This document shows positions 10,247 to 18,318 of a stretch of 64,000 bases of DNA, piece by piece. Each line of letters opens with the position of its first letter. The first letter of the stretch is position 1. The notes below the pieces were generated by a model that did not search any database, was not told the DNA's origin, and was given only the letters and a program-made list of their open reading frames with translations. Location: positions 17,577 through 81,576 of the forward strand of contig JAYNJV010000004.1 in assembly GCA_038110525.1 (NCBI GenBank). The letters run 5' to 3'. The translations under genes were made by a program, and so were the position numbers. Source of the stretch: Candidatus Poseidoniales archaeon. Lineage in GTDB: Archaea > Thermoplasmatota > Poseidoniia > Poseidoniales > Poseidoniaceae.

Positions 10247-10266
10247 GACACACCGTGGGGTATGTC
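10247..10266. repeat. left boundary site GACACACCGTGGGGTATGTC
   Basis: 16/20 identical to the right site, including an 11-nt perfect run GACACACCGTG. Arms GACAC/ATGTC flank a 10-bp spacer. Confidence 0.6.
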
Positions 10267-10399: not shown

Positions 10400-11119
10400 A
10401 TGGCTAAGCAGAAACAAGCAGAACAATGCGTTCTCTATATTCGAGTCTCCTCCACTCGCCAAGCCGAAGACGGTGTGAGTATTGATGCCCAAATTGCGAG
10501 AGGCAAACTTCACGCACAATACATGAATTTTCTGCTGCCCGATGAAAATATTTTCATCGATGAGGGCGTAAGTGCCACAACCCCATTGTGGTCAAGACCT
10601 GCTGGTAAGCAGATGCGGGAGTTCATCACCAAGCAGAAGATTAAGCAGATTATTGCGTATCGAATGGACCGATTATTCAGAAGAACCGTGGATTGTCTTG
10701 CTACGGTTGAAGAATTGGATGATGAAGGCGTGAGTATTCAATTCTGTGAATCAGGTGGTCAGCCTCTCGATTTGTCGTCGGCTGTTGGACGTATGCTCAT
10801 CACTATCATGGCGGCCTTCGGTGAAATGGAGCGAAATCTCATCAGCGAGCGAACGTGTATGGCCATGCAACATCTCAAAGCGAATGGCAAGAGGTTCACT
10901 TACGACAAATATGGATGGGATGTTGATGAAGACAACAACTTCATTGAGAATGAAACAGAACAGTATTGGATTGAATACATCAAGGTGAGATACCATGAGG
11001 ATAACATCTCAATCTCACAAATTGCAAGAGAACTCAACACCTGTGGGGTTCCAACCAAGCGTAATGGAACCTGGTCTCACAAACAAGTCTCACGAATAAT
11101 CGCTCGCCAAAATGAATAA
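10400..11119 (+). CDS. small serine recombinase (resolvase/invertase family)
   Basis: N-terminal catalytic block VLYIRVSSTRQAEDGVSIDAQ (nucleophile Ser), then YRMDRLFRR and MERNLISERT blocks. C-terminal HTH-like ISISQIARELN..GVPT. The upstream 134 codons of ORF 9998..11119 were rejected. Confidence 0.85.
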   Translation: MAKQKQAEQCVLYIRVSSTRQAEDGVSIDAQIARGKLHAQYMNFLLPDENIFIDEGVSATTPLWSRPAGKQMREFITKQKIKQIIAYRMDRLFRRTVDCLATVEELDDEGVSIQFCESGGQPLDLSSAVGRMLITIMAAFGEMERNLISERTCMAMQHLKANGKRFTYDKYGWDVDEDNNFIENETEQYWIEYIKVRYHEDNISISQIARELNTCGVPTKRNGTWSHKQVSRIIARQNE

Positions 11120-13022
11120 CAAATTAGATCAATCCAGGTGTGTTGGTTTAATCGTGTCAGAAGATGCGTTGACTTTTACAATGACTCCAAAGAAAGGTTT
11201 CTTTGGCATTGGTAAATCAAAGGCAGAATGTTTCACATGTCCAAAGGCAATTTATCCATCATTAAAACAAGAGTTTGACTTATCAAAAACAAATCTCCAA
11301 CAAAGTGCAACATTGGTTATAGAAAACGAAGAGTACCCTTTTCTTGTTAGGCTTGTAAATATGAATAGGACTAAAGTTAGAAAATTACTTCCCTCAAAAT
11401 TGATTAAGCGGGAGACGATACAATTCTCTTGGAAATCAGACCCACAAACTCAATCAAAGATAAAGGAATATCTTGCAGGATCTTACTCCCAGCTCCTCGA
11501 TAATAATGAAGCCACTGTTGACCCAGTAGTGTTCAGATATTGCGGTAATAAAAGATTCAAACTTGAGCGAAAGGAGCCAGACGACAATAACTCGCAAGTT
11601 TTCAAGATTGGAATAGAGTATAGGGATACTGGAACGCCAACATCAAGTGAAGACGAGTTCATGGGTTGGATAAATATAGAAGGCAGTGGAATAAAGAATG
11701 CGGGAGGTATTCGTGGAATAAAGTCACTAAGAACTGGGCACTCTAGTTTGGATGCATTGATCTTGGTTACAAGTCATAAACCTGGAAATTTGCACAACCC
11801 TTGGGATGATAAAATAGATTCTAGCGATTCTACTATGTTCTATTGGGGAGATGCTAAACAACATTCTGATAAAGGTATGATGGATTTTCAGGGGAATAGG
11901 CATTTGATGGAAGCAAAGGAGAATCAAATACCAATATTACACTTCATAAGAAACAGACAAAGTTATGTGGAATTTTCAGGCATATATCTAATGCAAAACC
12001 TGGAAACAAAACAAATGACTGATCAAGGAAAAACGATTGAAAATCTGTTTGTTACCTTAGAACGGACCCAAGACAGAGCTGTCAACTGTGAATGGTTAAG
12101 AGATTGGAGAACCAAAGACGATTGGGCAGAGAGAATCAAGAATGGCCCCACAGACTGGTTATCGAGAATAAAACCTCAGAAAACAGGTTCAAATATTCAA
12201 TCAGAAGATCACATTGTCGCTAACATACCGAGCTCTTTTGTCCAGAGGAAAATCAAATTAGCCAATGATCGCGGTAATGGTGAAGCAAAACTGTATATTG
12301 GACCGGTTAAGAATAAAGAGGGGTATGAAAAATTCTTCTGTAATTGGCACCCAATGAATACTTACGAATTGGATCGGGTCAATTTACTACTTTACCTTCA
12401 AGACGTTGAACTGGAATTTTCCAAGCAAAGCAAATACAAGGCAGTAAGTAAGAAACTATACTACGAGTTGTTCAATAAAGTTGAGAGATTAGATGACAAT
12501 CGAATAGACTTGACTTACCATGAAGACAAGTCTAGATATTACATCCGTGGTACCAGCGAAGCTTGGAAATTGATTCGAAAAACCTGTTTACCACTAATTA
12601 CAACCCTGTTAATCGAAGTAAAATCGAGTAATAGTGATGGTTCATGCGATTATGTTGTGAGAATTTTATGCTCAGGCGAAGGAAGAGCGGCAAATCCAAC
12701 TAGTGGTATGAAGAGTAAATCGAGAAAAAAAAGGTCTCAAAGGAAAGCCAAACAGATTAAATTCAAGATGACACCTGAAGATAGCCGCACAATTAGTGAT
12801 GACTTAAAGGACAGAGTTTGGAGGCGTGATCAGGGAATGTGTCAAGCAAATTACAAACTTGATTCACGATTTGACAAGAATACAGGAGAGATTTGCGGTT
12901 CAAACGAGAATTTGGAATTCGATCATATCGTTCCATTTTCTAGGGGAGGAAAGACTACCTATAGGAACCTGCAATTGCTTTGCAGAACCCATAACCAGAT
13001 TAAATCAGATAGAGAAATCTAG
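11112..13022 (+). CDS. multidomain HNH endonuclease (unassigned N-terminus, SRA/YDG-like middle region, C-terminal HNH)
   Basis: C-terminal HNH: LEFDHIVPFSRGGKTTYRNLQLLCRTHNQIK. Residues ~185-300 (GIRGIKS...ALILVTS...NPWDDKIDSSDSTMFYWGDAKQ...FQGNRHLMEA...IPILHFIR) follow the block order of SRA/YDG 5mC-binding domains. ATGAATAA overlap with the recombinase stop codon. Confidence 0.7.
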   Translation: MNNKLDQSRCVGLIVSEDALTFTMTPKKGFFGIGKSKAECFTCPKAIYPSLKQEFDLSKTNLQQSATLVIENEEYPFLVRLVNMNRTKVRKLLPSKLIKRETIQFSWKSDPQTQSKIKEYLAGSYSQLLDNNEATVDPVVFRYCGNKRFKLERKEPDDNNSQVFKIGIEYRDTGTPTSSEDEFMGWINIEGSGIKNAGGIRGIKSLRTGHSSLDALILVTSHKPGNLHNPWDDKIDSSDSTMFYWGDAKQHSDKGMMDFQGNRHLMEAKENQIPILHFIRNRQSYVEFSGIYLMQNLETKQMTDQGKTIENLFVTLERTQDRAVNCEWLRDWRTKDDWAERIKNGPTDWLSRIKPQKTGSNIQSEDHIVANIPSSFVQRKIKLANDRGNGEAKLYIGPVKNKEGYEKFFCNWHPMNTYELDRVNLLLYLQDVELEFSKQSKYKAVSKKLYYELFNKVERLDDNRIDLTYHEDKSRYYIRGTSEAWKLIRKTCLPLITTLLIEVKSSNSDGSCDYVVRILCSGEGRAANPTSGMKSKSRKKRSQRKAKQIKFKMTPEDSRTISDDLKDRVWRRDQGMCQANYKLDSRFDKNTGEICGSNENLEFDHIVPFSRGGKTTYRNLQLLCRTHNQIKSDREI

Positions 13023-14611
13023 TTTTCCAATAACGCTGCCACAACACGTTCCAAGTCAGCCTGTTGGATTTGTCTTTCAGGCAATTCGTCAAACAACTCT
13101 TTGACCCTAATGGCTCTTTCCTTGAGGCTATTGAAAGTCTTGTCCTTAGCAGCAAGAACAGGAATTGCCTGCGCCATAATTGCGATAAGGACATCAACGA
13201 CGATTGAGTTGCCTGCTTGCCTGTAAAGCTGATTGTTTGACACAACCTGCTTGAATGAATCACAGAACCCCATCAGCCTCAAACACTCTGTAGGAGTTAA
13301 CATACGAATTCGACCTTCAGTAGTAACATAATTGTCGACACCTGCTCTGTGATTCTTGTGCATTGTTGATAGCAACGGCCTTGCAACCTCGAGGTCAATC
13401 TTAGGTATTGACCTGAAGCCTTTCGTGCCTGTTGCCATTACATATGTCTCAACTTTTTGGCTCAAGAAGTGCTTTTCATCAATCAGATGCTGGCCATTAT
13501 TTTCTTCTACGAAAACAAAGTCACCATGCCAATTGAACTGCTGATTTGCTTTCTGACAAAGCATGATTTCTCCGTCAATTTGAGTGTACTGTTTCCTGTG
13601 ATTTTTCTCCCAAGTCACAAAATCAACACCTTTGGTTCCGAGATAGAATTTACCTGCTACATTGTCCTCAAGGAAATCTTGCATCTTGCTTTTTAGTTCG
13701 ACAGGTTCCGGGAATGTGAAATCAGAACCGTCGTTAAGGAAGCCAACCACGAACACTCTTTGGCGATGTTGTGGAACTCCGTAATCCTTCGAATTAAGAA
13801 CTTCGTGGTGCCAGGTATAACCTGTATTATCAAAGCACTTTGAAATAACTTCCCACGTCTTTTTGTTATCGTGAGTGTACACGCCTTTGACGTTCTCCCA
13901 AATGAATATCTTAGGCTTTATTTCGTCGACCAATCGTACAAAATCATAGAATAGGGTCCCTCTAGCGTCATCAAATCCTTCTTGGTGACCAACGAAAGAG
14001 AAACTCTGACAGGGGCTCCCTCCAACAAATAGGTCGATTTCTCCTTCATACTGCTTACCGTCCAAAAATGAAACGTCTTTGTGGAAATGTTCAGAAGGGC
14101 AATCATAATTTGCAAGATATGATTCCTCGACGAATGCCTTTTTCCCACGCAACTCATAGAGTTCATTCACTAATTCACGTCTCAACTTTTGATCTGAAAT
14201 TGATTGAATACTCAATCTTAACACATCTTCGATAGAAGGAATATCGACTTCTTTTTCAGCTAGTAATGCATTGTGGAAATCACAAACTAACGATGTGTTT
14301 GAAAGTTTTAGGAAATCCTTTTCATTTTCAAAAGTGGTTTGCGGTTTGATACCGTGTAGAAACGATTTCTCATCTTGGCTACATCCATCCATCCAGCAGC
14401 AATTCAACTTGTGTAGTCCTTCAAATGAGGCTCCTGCATCGTCCAATTTAGCAAGCAGGTCTTTCAATTTTTTTACCGATGTTACTTTCTCTGCCCAATC
14501 GATATTACTGTTGTCACAAGCAAATGCAACTTCATAATCGATTCCCATTCTTTCGAGAGCATGTTCTATTGCCCCTATGCCTGAGAATACGGTTCCTAAT
14601 CTCATGGGCAT
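13019..14611 (-). CDS. DNA (cytosine-5)-methyltransferase with an enlarged motif I-IV spacer
   Basis: Motif I FSGIGA, motif IV GGSPCQSFS, VI ENVKG, VIII QHRQRVFVVGF, IX TPTECLRLMGF, X RQAGNSIVV. About 190 aa separate motif I from PCQ. Confidence 0.9.
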   Translation of the reverse strand: MPMRLGTVFSGIGAIEHALERMGIDYEVAFACDNSNIDWAEKVTSVKKLKDLLAKLDDAGASFEGLHKLNCCWMDGCSQDEKSFLHGIKPQTTFENEKDFLKLSNTSLVCDFHNALLAEKEVDIPSIEDVLRLSIQSISDQKLRRELVNELYELRGKKAFVEESYLANYDCPSEHFHKDVSFLDGKQYEGEIDLFVGGSPCQSFSFVGHQEGFDDARGTLFYDFVRLVDEIKPKIFIWENVKGVYTHDNKKTWEVISKCFDNTGYTWHHEVLNSKDYGVPQHRQRVFVVGFLNDGSDFTFPEPVELKSKMQDFLEDNVAGKFYLGTKGVDFVTWEKNHRKQYTQIDGEIMLCQKANQQFNWHGDFVFVEENNGQHLIDEKHFLSQKVETYVMATGTKGFRSIPKIDLEVARPLLSTMHKNHRAGVDNYVTTEGRIRMLTPTECLRLMGFCDSFKQVVSNNQLYRQAGNSIVVDVLIAIMAQAIPVLAAKDKTFNSLKERAIRVKELFDELPERQIQQADLERVVAALLEN

Positions 14612-14654
14612 CACACATTCCTGTCAATAAAGAGGGTTAATGACTCTTCTGGCT

Positions 14655-15437
14655 TCAATCTCCTCGTTTCTTTTTCCAAAAGTCATACTCTTCAGGTAGT
14701 GAGTCGTAAATCTGGTTGGCGCTCATTGAATACCAGTCTGCGGTTAGTTTCATCTGATTTCTCAAATCTGCAACTAATCGATTGATATTTCCAGGGCGAG
14801 TTTTTGTTGAATATCCTCGTCGCAAAGAACTGGATTCTTCATCCCAATATAGAAGACGTATGACTTCGATAAGATTCTTATTTGATATGACTTCGATTCT
14901 CCCTGCAGTTTGTTCAACGTCATCCCCCCATGAATCCAAGCTTCCCGAAAGTAAAACATCCGCCTGATGTTCAGAATTTTTGTTGTAATCATAAATCAAG
15001 TACGGCCCTAGTGCGTAGTGTCTTCTTCCACGCAATGATTGTTCACTGCCGCTGGAGATATATCTCGGTATGAATTTTGGATATTTCTCATACTGATCTT
15101 TCTTTTCCATCGGAACCTTTCTTCTTCCATTAGCGTCGACTGGACAAAATTGATCGAAATATCTCAAGACAATTGAGGCCCAAAAGTTCCTATTTTTCGA
15201 CACCATTTGCCTTGAAACTCCTGCCTCTTCGAGGACATGAACCAGATACTTTCCAAAAATTTGTTTGTTTTTGAATGTCATAGTCAATTGTAAATGAACC
15301 TTAGGTGAGAATTCTGTAGAATAGTTACGATCTGTTAACAGGTGAGTGGGTGCTGAACCACCTGATCTCGCACTTTCGTCCAAAAATGTTCTGAACATGT
15401 CAACACCTTCATCAGTCAAGATTCTAAACGCTACCAT
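14655..15437 (-). CDS. hypothetical protein C of the GHKL operon
   Basis: 260-aa ORF. Its ATG lies 1 nt after the stop codon of gene B and is preceded by AGAGGTGA (SD-like). No motif recognised. Confidence 0.6.
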   Translation of the reverse strand: MVAFRILTDEGVDMFRTFLDESARSGGSAPTHLLTDRNYSTEFSPKVHLQLTMTFKNKQIFGKYLVHVLEEAGVSRQMVSKNRNFWASIVLRYFDQFCPVDANGRRKVPMEKKDQYEKYPKFIPRYISSGSEQSLRGRRHYALGPYLIYDYNKNSEHQADVLLSGSLDSWGDDVEQTAGRIEVISNKNLIEVIRLLYWDEESSSLRRGYSTKTRPGNINRLVADLRNQMKLTADWYSMSANQIYDSLPEEYDFWKKKRGD

Positions 15438-15438
15438 T

Positions 15439-16251
15439 TCACTCACCTCTTTCGATGTTGATCAAATTAGAAGATAGAGCCTTACTTTCACTGTAATTTG
15501 CAACTACGTTCCCAATCCACTCTGATGCATCTTGTAAGAATTGAGCTTCATCAGTCTCATTTTCTTCATAAGATGGAGGCGTATTTTCTGGCAACAAGCT
15601 CCTTGCAAATCTTATCCAAGCACCTTTCCATGTTTGGTCTTCGTACCACCTGTACAAATCTGCCTTCATACTGATCATCAAGAAGTTCAACATACCTTCA
15701 AACACCGAAGGCATAATCATTCCCATAACCTTAGAGTCCTCTTGTAGTGGCTTGCCGGAATCCAATGCTACATCCCACCATTTTTGATTAAACACCAATT
15801 TTGGCAGTTCTATTTCTTCATAAACCTCTAATTTCCATGGGCGCTCTCCTAAATCTTCATAATCAGCAATAATTAGGCTTCTACGAGATTTCAAATCAGG
15901 TTGTGCGATTGAGACAGTATGCTTTTTACTAGCGGCCAAAAGATTGCCACCATCAACAACTCTTACAACAAAACTAGCACTTGTCCAAGAATCTAATTCA
16001 GATAATGAAACATTATCAGGACTTACAGGGTTTCCAAATGTGCCATAATCAAAGCGCATGAATGACATATCTTTTCCAACATCTACGAACACTTTGGCAT
16101 TAGGAGGAATTTGTTCCAGTGCAGGTTTCATGCTCCAATCGAATTCCATTTCCAACAATGGTGCTTTTTGATGAATTTTAGAAAGTCTAGCGTCTATACA
16201 CTCCTGTGTAATTAGCATTCGGCCAGTATAGTTGAAGTTTCTACTAGCCAT
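15439..16251 (-). CDS. hypothetical protein B of the GHKL operon
   Basis: 270-aa ORF. Its ATG overlaps the last codons of the GHKL gene by 8 nt and is preceded by AGAGGTGA. Beta-rich N-terminal half, helical C-terminal half. No motif recognised. Confidence 0.6.
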   Translation of the reverse strand: MASRNFNYTGRMLITQECIDARLSKIHQKAPLLEMEFDWSMKPALEQIPPNAKVFVDVGKDMSFMRFDYGTFGNPVSPDNVSLSELDSWTSASFVVRVVDGGNLLAASKKHTVSIAQPDLKSRRSLIIADYEDLGERPWKLEVYEEIELPKLVFNQKWWDVALDSGKPLQEDSKVMGMIMPSVFEGMLNFLMISMKADLYRWYEDQTWKGAWIRFARSLLPENTPPSYEENETDEAQFLQDASEWIGNVVANYSESKALSSNLINIERGE

Positions 16252-18226
16252 TTTCTTCACCTCTGATCAATCTTGGTTGTTTATGATGAACAAATAAATC
16301 TCTATCTACATCAAATCCAGTTACGTCGATACTATATTCTTCTGTTGGGCCAATCGCTCTGAAGACGATTGTATTTCCTTCAGATTTTTCAACAACAATT
16401 CCAGATTCTTCAATTGTAAGATTTTTTACATCAAAGTCAAAAGGTTTCCATTTCTTAATCGGATCTTTGCCATCATCTCGAGCATATGCCATTTTCACAG
16501 TAAATAAGTAATCTACTTGTAAATTTATATCCCCGTGAATTGAGAACCCTCCTGGTATTTTGTCCAGTTCCCACGAATGGTTTTTGCTCAAGTCTTCTGG
16601 AGGTGGTGGAGGCCCAATTATTGTGTCATCTTCATCATTAACTTCATCCTCAGTAGGATTCTTTATCTTCTTTTTCCGTTTCCTTTTCTTAGGCTTGCTA
16701 GAATTTTCAATTTCTTCGGATGGAAACCAATCGTCAATCCAATCTTTCTCAAATAGCTCTTTCTTCACTTGTAAATACTCAATTAATTGTGATGCTGATT
16801 GACGGAAAAATCTGATAATATCTCTTCCATATTTGTAAAGAGACTCAATCCTTGTTGGCCGATGTTCAGTATGTGCAACCTCTTCACTGGATCTTAGCAA
16901 TTCTTCTAATTCTCCATCTTCCGAAACAATTATGCAAACAAAACCGTTCTTCTTAGGTCTGTAATCAGTTTTTGGAACTGACAGATATCTTCTAATCCAG
17001 ATGGCATCAGATCTACCAAATGACTCATCCTTTTTCATCAAAATTGTGAATTTAGATAAACTTGGTTCTCGAGGTAGTCTTTTGTTTTCTAAATACTTGA
17101 AGATTGGAACTTCAATGTTTAACGCAACAGGTTTTCCAGAATCTAAACGGGATCTGATTGTATCATAACTGTCTTCAGGAATTAAATCCCTATTCCAAAC
17201 AATGTTTTCGTTTGAAGGCGAATCAAGCGAAAATTCATTTGCATTACCACTACTCCACCAATTAGCTAATTCGATTAGTCCATTCATGCATTTTCTGTTT
17301 GTTGTAGCCATTGCTCCAGCAGGCTTCCCTACCCAAGTCATTTTGTCACAGATTTTGTAAATAGTTTCAGAATTTATCACTATTTCATGACTTCCATCAA
17401 CTATAATTTCCAATTTTCCTTGGCAAATTGGCATAAAATAAGCACGAATCATACTTTCAATAATTTCCTCGTCCCTGTAAACTCTCTTGGGATATGGAAT
17501 TATCACTGACAACCCTAATTCGTCTGTTCTGCTGAGATTGAAATCTTTGCTAATTATTTTGAATAATTCTTCCGAATCCGATGGCATGATACGTAAAACT
17601 TCGCCATTATCATCTACAACAACATTACCAAAATCGCCATAGGGGAAGTAAATTTGATCTCCAATCTCATGCATTTTGCCGACCGCATTTCCAAAAATTT
17701 TCACTCCATTTCTGTCTCTCGATACAGAAAAGAAGGAATTTATTTCCGACGCATTTGCGAAAGCATGTTTCCCGTAACCATACGATCCACCACGTTTTGT
17801 GGCGTTAGAATTTGTTCGATTTGTGTTTCTATGGAACCAATAAAACCTATTGTCAGGAGCATCTCCTCCAAGGCCATGATAACTTGCATCACCCTCTAAT
17901 CCCTTTGTTCCAAAATCTTCTACTACAACGTAATTCATGGGGGAATTGAGATTTGGGGTTGAAAATCCAGATTCGTTTAGATGATGAAATAATCCATTGA
18001 AGTATTTCTTTGCCATATCAGCAGACATCGCATTATTTCCAGTATTTACTGAGATCCTCATTCTGACCTTGGATCTATTATCAGAAGCATCAAGACTGTT
18101 CTGAGTTGATTCTCTAATCACCGCTCCCAAGGGAGGTAGATTTTCGAAAAGAATACCCTCGGCAGGATCTACGTTCCTGTCCCTTTCTCTCTTTGCAACA
18201 AAATGCCAACTTGGAATCATAACCAT
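16244..18226 (-). CDS. GHKL-superfamily (Bergerat fold, MORC/MutL/Hsp90-like) ATPase with a long unassigned C-terminal region
   Basis: N-box VIRESTQNSLDA (E-x3-N-x2-D-A), G1 box VVEDFGTKGL (D-x-G-x-G), G2 box KRGGSYGYGKHAF. Later a basic linker SSKPKKRKRKKKIK, then GPPPPPE, then a ~110-aa beta-rich tail. Start at ATG 18226 (MVMIPSW), preceded by a G6 run. Confidence 0.75.
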   Translation of the reverse strand: MVMIPSWHFVAKRERDRNVDPAEGILFENLPPLGAVIRESTQNSLDASDNRSKVRMRISVNTGNNAMSADMAKKYFNGLFHHLNESGFSTPNLNSPMNYVVVEDFGTKGLEGDASYHGLGGDAPDNRFYWFHRNTNRTNSNATKRGGSYGYGKHAFANASEINSFFSVSRDRNGVKIFGNAVGKMHEIGDQIYFPYGDFGNVVVDDNGEVLRIMPSDSEELFKIISKDFNLSRTDELGLSVIIPYPKRVYRDEEIIESMIRAYFMPICQGKLEIIVDGSHEIVINSETIYKICDKMTWVGKPAGAMATTNRKCMNGLIELANWWSSGNANEFSLDSPSNENIVWNRDLIPEDSYDTIRSRLDSGKPVALNIEVPIFKYLENKRLPREPSLSKFTILMKKDESFGRSDAIWIRRYLSVPKTDYRPKKNGFVCIIVSEDGELEELLRSSEEVAHTEHRPTRIESLYKYGRDIIRFFRQSASQLIEYLQVKKELFEKDWIDDWFPSEEIENSSKPKKRKRKKKIKNPTEDEVNDEDDTIIGPPPPPEDLSKNHSWELDKIPGGFSIHGDINLQVDYLFTVKMAYARDDGKDPIKKWKPFDFDVKNLTIEESGIVVEKSEGNTIVFRAIGPTEEYSIDVTGFDVDRDLFVHHKQPRLIRGEENG

Positions 18227-18257
18227 CCCCCCGAGATAAGAATTTAACAAATACGGC

Positions 18258-18298: not shown

Positions 18299-18318
18299 GA
18301 CACACCGTGCAGAGTGTC
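18299..18318. repeat. right boundary site GACACACCGTGCAGAGTGTC
   Basis: Perfect 5-bp dyad arms GACAC/GTGTC around a 10-bp spacer. Same orientation as the left site. Sits between the GHKL operon promoter and the trxB promoter. Confidence 0.6.

Follow-up and report, generated by a model that had tools for sequence, protein, structure and literature searches.

We describe here the nuclease gene P0001 and its neighbours in a window of 64,000 nucleotides (nt) of DNA from a Candidatus Poseidoniales archaeon (contig JAYNJV010000004.1); unless a locus is named, coordinates refer to this window and + and − to its strands. P0001 (11112..13022, +) is a real and intact open reading frame, running from ATG to TAG, and encodes a multi-domain HNH nuclease of 636 amino acids (aa). 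We favour, with modest confidence, the view that P0001 supplies the restriction activity of a mobile system of five genes, which encode the HNH nuclease, a C5 cytosine methylase and a GHKL ATPase trio, and that it is not a solitary type IV enzyme. The initial annotation of this stretch had placed the protein in the type IV SRA-HNH class. Part of that assignment stands, in that the reader and HNH domains are both present and the base-binding pocket is conserved. However, the reader is of the MspJI type, the protein has four modules and not two, and the gene is linked to a methylase. A stand-alone type IV enzyme is not the reading that we favour.

Domain architecture and conservation of P0001

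A profile search splits P0001 into four modules, each of which also occurs independently. At the C-terminus lies the HNH domain (aa 560-636; 12789..13019, +), where the initial annotation had already placed it. The Pfam match to HNH (PF01844) covers aa 593-634 with an expectation value (E) of 5.5e-10, and the HNH_5 and HNH_4 profiles (PF14279, PF13395) match as well. In an alignment of 10 P0001 homologues (A1), which reaches down to 45% identity, D604-H605, N619, H627-N628 and C577/C595/C624 are invariant. The profile match is thus accompanied by the catalytic D/H-H, the structural N and the metal-binding H/N expected of a beta-beta-alpha-metal nuclease.

Every domain of P0001 is under purifying selection. 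Taking the 90%-identical homologue of locus L001 as the reference, the ratio of non-synonymous to synonymous substitution rates (dN/dS) is 0.18 for the whole gene, 0.21 for the reader domain described below and 0.07 for the HNH domain. All of the homologues derive from Poseidoniaceae metagenome-assembled genomes (MAGs) or from metagenomes of marine, estuarine or salt-marsh origin. A scan of a genome collection with the half of the protein that comprises module M (see below) and HNH returned only one full-length relative, in another Poseidoniaceae MAG and frameshifted; the remaining matches were unrelated HNH proteins, which were reused as negative controls.

The middle of the protein, which had been likened to SRA/YDG domains over residues ~185-300, is an SRA-like reader module of the MspJI/AspBHI type (aa 160-356; 11589..12179, +). 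The RE_AspBHI_N family (PF18062) matches aa 179-351, a span that covers the whole of that stretch, at E = 4.1e-15 (56 bits vs a cut-off of 27), and the PADLOC model for methyl-directed restriction endonucleases matches aa 198-350 (E = 6e-8). MspJI is also the top match for this region in a sequence search of the PDB, where NPWDDKIDSSDSTMFYWGDAK of P0001, one of the blocks singled out in the initial annotation, aligns to NPWHDEFDLDHGHVRYFGDHK of MspJI. Foldseek, run on the AlphaFold model, returned MspJI (E = 9e-9), LpnPI and AspBHI, in a range from 9e-9 to 4e-6, and below these the SRA domain of ScoMcrA (E = 1.6e-4) and the SRA domains of SUVH5/6 and UHRF2; the predicted fold is SRA-like. The full-length AlphaFold model, built from 10 sequences, was used only for such domain-level Foldseek matches, and its reader region is usable despite the poor quality of the whole. 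The canonical SRA model of Pfam gave no match in P0001 at E of 1 or below. Judged by these profile matches, the reader belongs to the MspJI/AspBHI family (PF18062) and not to the canonical SRA domains of TagI, ScoA3IV and ScoMcrA.

At the level of the sequence alignment, the pocket of the reader is conserved. Residues W231, D233, Y244, W245, D247 and K249 of P0001 align with W101, D103, Y114, F115, D117 and K119 of MspJI; the first five are invariant in the 10 homologues, and K249 is kept in at least 90% of them. In the MspJI-DNA structure, the flipped 5-methylcytosine (5mC) is sandwiched by Trp101 and Tyr114, Asp103 forms hydrogen bonds with its N3 and N4, the carbonyl of Phe115 contacts N4 and Asp117 touches the methyl group (PMC4231741). 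The nearest relatives of the reader module in a library of 1.8 billion proteins are fused to Mrr_cat, to NOV_C, to HARE-HTH plus HNH_2, or to a McrB-type AAA_5. Because of these fusion partners we take the SRA-like domain of P0001 to be a genuine type-IV-style reader of modified cytosine, as far as sequence and structural model can tell.

The segments that the initial annotation had left unassigned, ~1-180 and ~300-580, can now be given a probable fold in the first case and a new domain in the second. The first contains a probable B3-like DNA-binding pseudobarrel, module B3N (aa 15-158; 11154..11585, +). Its best Foldseek match is the N-terminal domain of LlaJI.R1 (E = 8.7e-3, probability 0.98), and others are the B3 domain of VAL1 (template modelling score of 0.61, normalised to the target), the B3 domain of TEM1 and the C-terminal domain of BfiI. 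The predicted local distance difference test score (pLDDT) of this region is about 60-89 in the full-length model. Profile searches against PDB and Pfam gave nothing meaningful for B3N, which has no sequence-level family match; the module is also found as stand-alone proteins of 140-170 aa.

The second segment is largely taken up by module M (aa 362-532; 12195..12707, +), which is recognised by the signature motifs IPSSFV, GNGEAKLYIG and SRYYIR. In a second model, covering aa 356-636, module M has a pLDDT of 80-95, the HNH part of that model being poor. Foldseek returned no PDB relative for module M, its best match (E = 0.6) falling on the HNH part, and M matches no Pfam family. The module is also found at the N-terminus of bacterial AAA_5/LlaJI.R1-like and HNH_2 proteins. 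It is followed by a Lys/Arg-rich linker that is predicted to be disordered (aa 533-559; 12708..12788, +; pLDDT below 50) and varies in length, with long insertions in the homologues P0007, P0008 and P0014. Module M and the linker, together ~200 aa, stand between the reader and HNH in P0001.

Across the family, the constant core consists of the B3-like domain, M, the linker and HNH, as in the 416-aa homologue P0015, which has no SRA-like domain. In one subclade, that of P0001, the SRA-like domain is inserted after the B3-like domain and before M; in P0009 and P0014 Mrr_N occupies its position, and in P0010 the order is Mrr_N, SRA-like domain, M and HNH. Module M of P0009 is 89% identical to that of P0001, yet P0009 bears Mrr_N where P0001 bears the SRA-like domain, and reader modules therefore appear to be exchanged on an M-HNH chassis that itself stays constant. 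Relative to the core, the insertions of the SRA-like domain and of Mrr_N are secondary.

Linkage to a C5 methylase and a GHKL cassette

Module M travels with one family of C5 methylases. A metagenome scan with an alignment of module M gave 80 loci, and a C5 methylase of the window's family is present in 74 of them, with a recognition region 58-97% identical to that of the window's enzyme; the six loci without it are all truncated contigs. In contrast, none of 10 control loci, which encode a related HNH domain and no module M, contains a methylase of this family. The initial annotation had set against its type IV proposal the possibility of a cognate pair with the neighbouring methylase, and it is this pairing that the comparative genomics matches.

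The pairing of M and methylase spans four chassis of nuclease or motor: HNH with the GHKL trio, AAA_5 with RE_LlaJI, HTH_73-AAA_5 with McrC, and a compact set of HTH-methylase, M-HNH_2 (~322 aa) and Vsr that has a textbook type II layout. In the second of these, bacterial LlaJI.R1-like AAA_5 proteins are headed by module M, RE_LlaJI follows, and the adjoining methylase is 59% identical to the window's, the recognition region included. The compact set was seen at L110 (6388-9363) and L112 (862-3416), where an HTH_3-fused C5 methylase accompanies M+HNH_2 and Vsr; the set resembles a classical type II restriction–modification (R-M) system that has yet to be characterised. Only at L005, which encodes P0014, do two unrelated C5 methylases stand in for the usual one, and P0014 has lost the invariant M motifs GNGEAKLYIG and SRYYIR. 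At L003 (P0008), the 6.9-kb contig shows no methylase, and GNGEAKL reads GNGISKL, with another residue in place of the invariant Glu.

The methylase of the window (531 aa; 13019..14614, −; PF00145, E = 2e-70) is convergent with P0001. All of its catalytic motifs are intact, and it has an extra insert between motifs I and IV. The closest solved structure, M.HhaI, aligns in the catalytic motifs only and not in the recognition region. Nearly all of the 19 loci listed below have an orthologue of it (60-95% identity), placed between nuclease and cassette or immediately upstream, and the recognition region is about 74-97% identical across loci with and without the SRA-like domain. The insert (14120-14505; aa ~38-165) has the pattern CxxC ... 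(D)HIxP ... NLxLxCxxHN, which recalls a zinc-ribbon/HNH motif; a custom HNH profile gave no significant match to it (best E = 0.03). In L020 (2604-4397) and L024 (1968-3767) the insert is split by a SAP domain. A second C5 methylase gene, a 437-aa open frame, is found elsewhere in the same genome (G000, contig C34, 8155-9201). With two C5 methylases in its genome of 1.9 Mb, the host probably has at least two 5mC patterns.

The nuclease is thus co-inherited with an intact methylase, and the specificities of the two presumably match. Type IV enzymes are defined by having no cognate methyltransferase; here the neighbouring gene encodes an intact C5 methylase, with whose family module M co-varies. 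A published survey found a DNA methylase within 3 kb of fewer than 6% of 350 PUA/SRA-nuclease fusions (PMC6765204), and LlaJI, the bacterial relative mentioned above, has been described as modification-blocked (PMC3874153). Since module M links the nuclease to the methylase family, P0001 and the methylase look, from their sequences, like a cognate R-M pair.

Beside the methylase, and likewise on the minus strand, are three genes that form a cassette. Proteins C (263 aa; 14655..15446, −) and B (273 aa; 15439..16260, −) belong to no known family; neither has a Pfam match, nor a PADLOC PDC-M33 match even at E of 10 or below. Protein A (668 aa; 16244..18250, −) is a candidate GHKL-type ATPase, which matches PADLOC PDC-M33A at E = 5e-12 and whose motif ESTQNSLDA resembles an ATPase N-box; none of the Pfam GHKL models reached threshold on it. 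No paper came up in a literature search for PDC-M33. The layout of the island agrees with an earlier prediction (Iyer, Abhiman & Aravind 2008, PMC2292703) that GHKL ATPases function in R-M operons, together with genes for Dcm, Vsr and HNH proteins.

A cassette of this form, with minus-strand genes for about 255, 270 and 660 aa, stands beside the nuclease in 19 of 19 informative HNH-type loci, that is, those on contigs extending far enough to show it (the window, L001-L006, L017, L020, L021, L024, L034-L036, L040, L041 and L043-L045). Orthologues of protein C, at 60-93% identity, adjoin every HNH homologue. The five gene products (nuclease, methylase, A, B and C) show parallel divergence between loci, down to ~45% identity. 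Among 401 sampled genomes of the phylum, including 15 other genomes of the window's genus, the cassette is found only in the window's own, plus two with distant paralogues. L017 (3920-11235) carries a tandem pair of GHKL A-B-C cassettes with about 21-25% mutual identity, and L027 has a lone relative of the second cassette type of L017.

The recombinase, the island and its expression

Upstream of P0001 lies the gene for a small serine recombinase of the resolvase type (about 239 aa; 10400..11119, +), which matches Pfam Resolvase (E = 3e-31) and Recombinase. Its frame is open from 9998, with a probable start near 10400 (MAKQKQ...), and the protein shares 85% identity with its 238-aa counterpart in L005. 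The ATG of P0001 overlaps the recombinase stop, as had been noted initially, in the 8 nt ATGAATAA at 11112-11119. At its other end, the TAG of P0001 overlaps the stop of the convergent methylase gene in CTAG (13019-13022); this palindrome, shared by the two stops, leaves no space for a terminator between the genes.

Whereas the linkage to the GHKL cassette is universal (19/19), that to the recombinase is local. A recombinase is present in 5 of the 11 homologue loci with listed neighbours, namely the window, L001, L002, L005 and, in frameshifted form, L006; L034 onward lie outside this screen, and the upstream sequence of L003 and of L004, which starts too near its contig end, is too short for a recombinase to be judged. 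L017, L020/L021 and L024 have no recombinase neighbour, and the methylase and cassette are present there; the genes upstream of the nuclease in L017 and L020 are unrelated. In L024 (3-266), Vsr, a T:G mismatch endonuclease, is directly upstream of the nuclease homologue, in the same direction and in the recombinase's place.

The island is bracketed by a 20-nt direct repeat (family D2), with its left copy at 10247..10266 and its right copy, 80% identical to the left (16/20), at 18299..18318; this repeat is likely to be the recombinase site. The G+C content is 0.37-0.41 between the repeats vs 0.47-0.50 outside. The same island occurs, at about 90% identity, in L006 (8063-15933; Poseidoniaceae MAG CASIAI010000006), where frameshifts interrupt four genes, those for the recombinase, the nuclease, the methylase and protein B. 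The frameshifts could be assembly or long-read indel errors, or could mark a decaying copy.

Close relatives of the island appear to be transcribed. Contigs from seawater metatranscriptomes, 90-98% identical to the window, cover all of the island genes; three of them span the junction of recombinase and P0001, and one spans the convergent junction of P0001 and the methylase. Transcription of P0001 together with the recombinase, which the initial annotation had proposed, is plausible and consistent with the 8-nt overlap and the junction-spanning contigs, which attest to the presence of such sequences in RNA libraries and not to operon structure.

Mode of action, alternatives and comparison with known systems

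In the mechanism that we propose, module M would tie the nuclease to the methylase in one of two ways, by reading the site that the methylase marks or by docking onto the methylase and so borrowing its recognition region, and the HNH domain would cut DNA that does not carry the host 5mC mark. The GHKL trio is a candidate clamp or motor driven by nucleoside triphosphates. A parallel is offered by LlaJI/McrBC systems, in which module M forms part of the motor protein and a second protein is the nuclease. The SRA-like domain, inserted between the B3-like domain and M, would most likely enable the enzyme, in addition, to recognise foreign modified cytosine in the manner of type IV enzymes, in sequence contexts other than those that the host methylase produces. 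Taken to its full extent, this scheme describes a two-faced nuclease that cuts both DNA without host 5mC, through M, and foreign-modified DNA, through the reader or Mrr_N, with the GHKL trio as an ATP-driven clamp or motor; we put this forward as a tentative possibility.

Several points weigh against this interpretation. Since the host methylates cytosine with two C5 methylases, an activating 5mC reader must avoid host sites or act differently; a 5mC reader with an obligate C5 methylase partner is paradoxical, and the exclusion of host sequence contexts is a proposed answer only. MspJI adjoins a C5 methylase gene that is thought to be inactive (PMC3874153), and adjacency by itself is therefore no proof of a cognate pair. 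The GHKL trio may be a separate system that shares only the methylase. Because module M has no relative of solved structure, gene linkage is our only ground for proposing that it binds DNA or the methylase. The assignment of B3N to the B3-like fold comes from a Foldseek E of ~1e-2 on a model of medium confidence, and the full-length AlphaFold model of P0001 is poor overall, with a mean pLDDT of 57. Finally, the metatranscriptome contigs are unstranded and of low depth, and may hold carried-over DNA.

It seems to us unlikely that P0001 is a stand-alone type IV enzyme, whose SRA-like domain finds foreign 5mC or 5-hydroxymethylcytosine (5hmC) and whose HNH domain cuts nearby, the methylase and GHKL genes being merely co-resident. 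Such an enzyme would fit the MspJI-family reader with its intact pocket, the closest relatives of that reader, whose fusions to Mrr_cat, NOV_C, HNH_2 and McrB-type AAA_5 are all typical of type IV, and the presence of Mrr_N, another type IV reader, in the same position of sister proteins; MspJI, too, has a C5 methylase gene beside it (PMC3874153). It fits the rest of the family poorly, however. Core proteins without the SRA-like domain, such as P0015, keep the methylase and the cassette, and it is the methylase family that M tracks (74 of 80 loci, none of the 10 controls). All five genes co-diverge to about 45% identity, and SRA/PUA-nuclease fusions typically have no DNA methylase neighbours (PMC6765204).

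The evidence for a cognate pair applies equally to a serious, if rather improbable, rival, in which the SRA-like domain binds fully or hemi-methylated host 5mC and either silences HNH or recruits the methylase. P0001 would then be a modification-blocked enzyme with no activity on modified foreign DNA, and the paradox of self-toxicity would be resolved without any special sequence context. Eukaryotic SRA domains read hemi-methylated DNA, UHRF1 recruits a methylase to hemi-methylated sites, and structures of UHRF1 and UHRF2 are among the fold matches of the P0001 reader; we know of no prokaryotic precedent for a self-sensing SRA-like domain. Such a sensor is evidently not required, as sister proteins without the SRA-like domain keep a near-identical methylase recognition region, and the occurrence of Mrr_N in the same position is better explained by interchangeable readers of foreign DNA. 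Last, P0001 might be a mobility or homing nuclease, translationally coupled to the recombinase, that serves the spread or maintenance of the 8-kb island and not defence. The overlap of its start with the recombinase stop, the direct repeats and low G+C content of the island, and the junction-spanning RNA contigs would all agree with such a role. We nevertheless consider it very improbable, given that the homologues of L017, L020/L021 and L024 have the methylase and cassette but no recombinase neighbour, and that the reader domains of P0001 are of the restriction-system type.

Restriction systems are normally divided into those that are blocked by host methylation and those that require foreign methylation. 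P0001 joins hallmarks of both classes in one chain, beside its own cytosine methylase. If it acts in both ways, the host would close the escape route that DNA methylation or hypermodification offers to viruses, and P0001 would be the first identified cutting partner for Dcm-linked GHKL (PDC-M33-like) cassettes. In any case, an identifiable nuclease is now linked to a GHKL ATPase cassette. Module M is a new domain, found in archaea and in bacteria, including gut bacteria, with four kinds of restriction machinery, and is a candidate portable specificity or docking module. As far as we are aware, the marine group II archaea have no genetic system and their defence repertoire has barely been studied.

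Among known systems, the MspJI family (MspJI, AspBHI, LpnPI, FspEI; type IIM/IV) has the reader family PF18062 and its fold in common with P0001, together with the residues that stack on and hydrogen-bond to the flipped 5mC (W, D, Y and the Y/F-G-D turn). Its enzymes have a C-terminal nuclease of the Mrr-type PD-(D/E)XK class, and the true family members that we found do bear Mrr_cat, whereas P0001 has HNH and no Mrr_cat match. Unlike theirs, the reader of P0001 is internal and flanked by two further domains, an intact C5 methylase and a GHKL trio are obligate neighbours of its gene, and its host is a Poseidoniaceae (marine group II) archaeon. In TagI, ScoA3IV/Sco5333, TbiR51I and ScoMcrA, as in P0001, a modified-cytosine reader lies N-terminal to HNH, ScoMcrA having an additional sulfur-binding domain. 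These SRA-HNH type IV enzymes differ in having a canonical SRA, two or three domains and solitary genes, where P0001 has an MspJI-type reader, the B3-like domain and M, and what appears to be a cognate methylase.

Closer in organisation are the LlaJI-type R-M systems, which consist of one or more m5C methylases, R1, with a DNA-binding N-domain and a McrB-like AAA_5, and the nuclease R2. They share with the P0001 island both module M, which stands where R1 has its recognition domain, and the methylase family (59% identity), and the B3-like fold of the N-domain of Helicobacter pylori LlaJI.R1 is the best match for the N-terminal domain of P0001. In the LlaJI type, however, reader and motor form one protein and the nuclease another, whereas in P0001 the reader is fused to HNH and the GHKL trio stands at the motor's place; no AAA_5 or RE_LlaJI (PF09563) was found in P0001 or the island proteins. 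For the PDC-M33 or paraMORC-type GHKL ATPases the island has a candidate in protein A; the PDC-M33 definition does not include a nuclease of the P0001 type, and proteins B and C do not match its models. EcoRII, a Dcm-blocked type IIE enzyme, has an N-terminal B3-like effector domain on a nuclease partnered by a C5 methylase, an arrangement that P0001 probably shares; its catalytic fold is different and there is no sequence similarity, so that an effector role for the B3-like domain of P0001 would be an analogy only. Set beside these systems, P0001 can be described as an HNH nuclease of the R-M type whose foundation is a methylase-linked domain not described before, with accreted type IV readers and a tie to a GHKL cassette.

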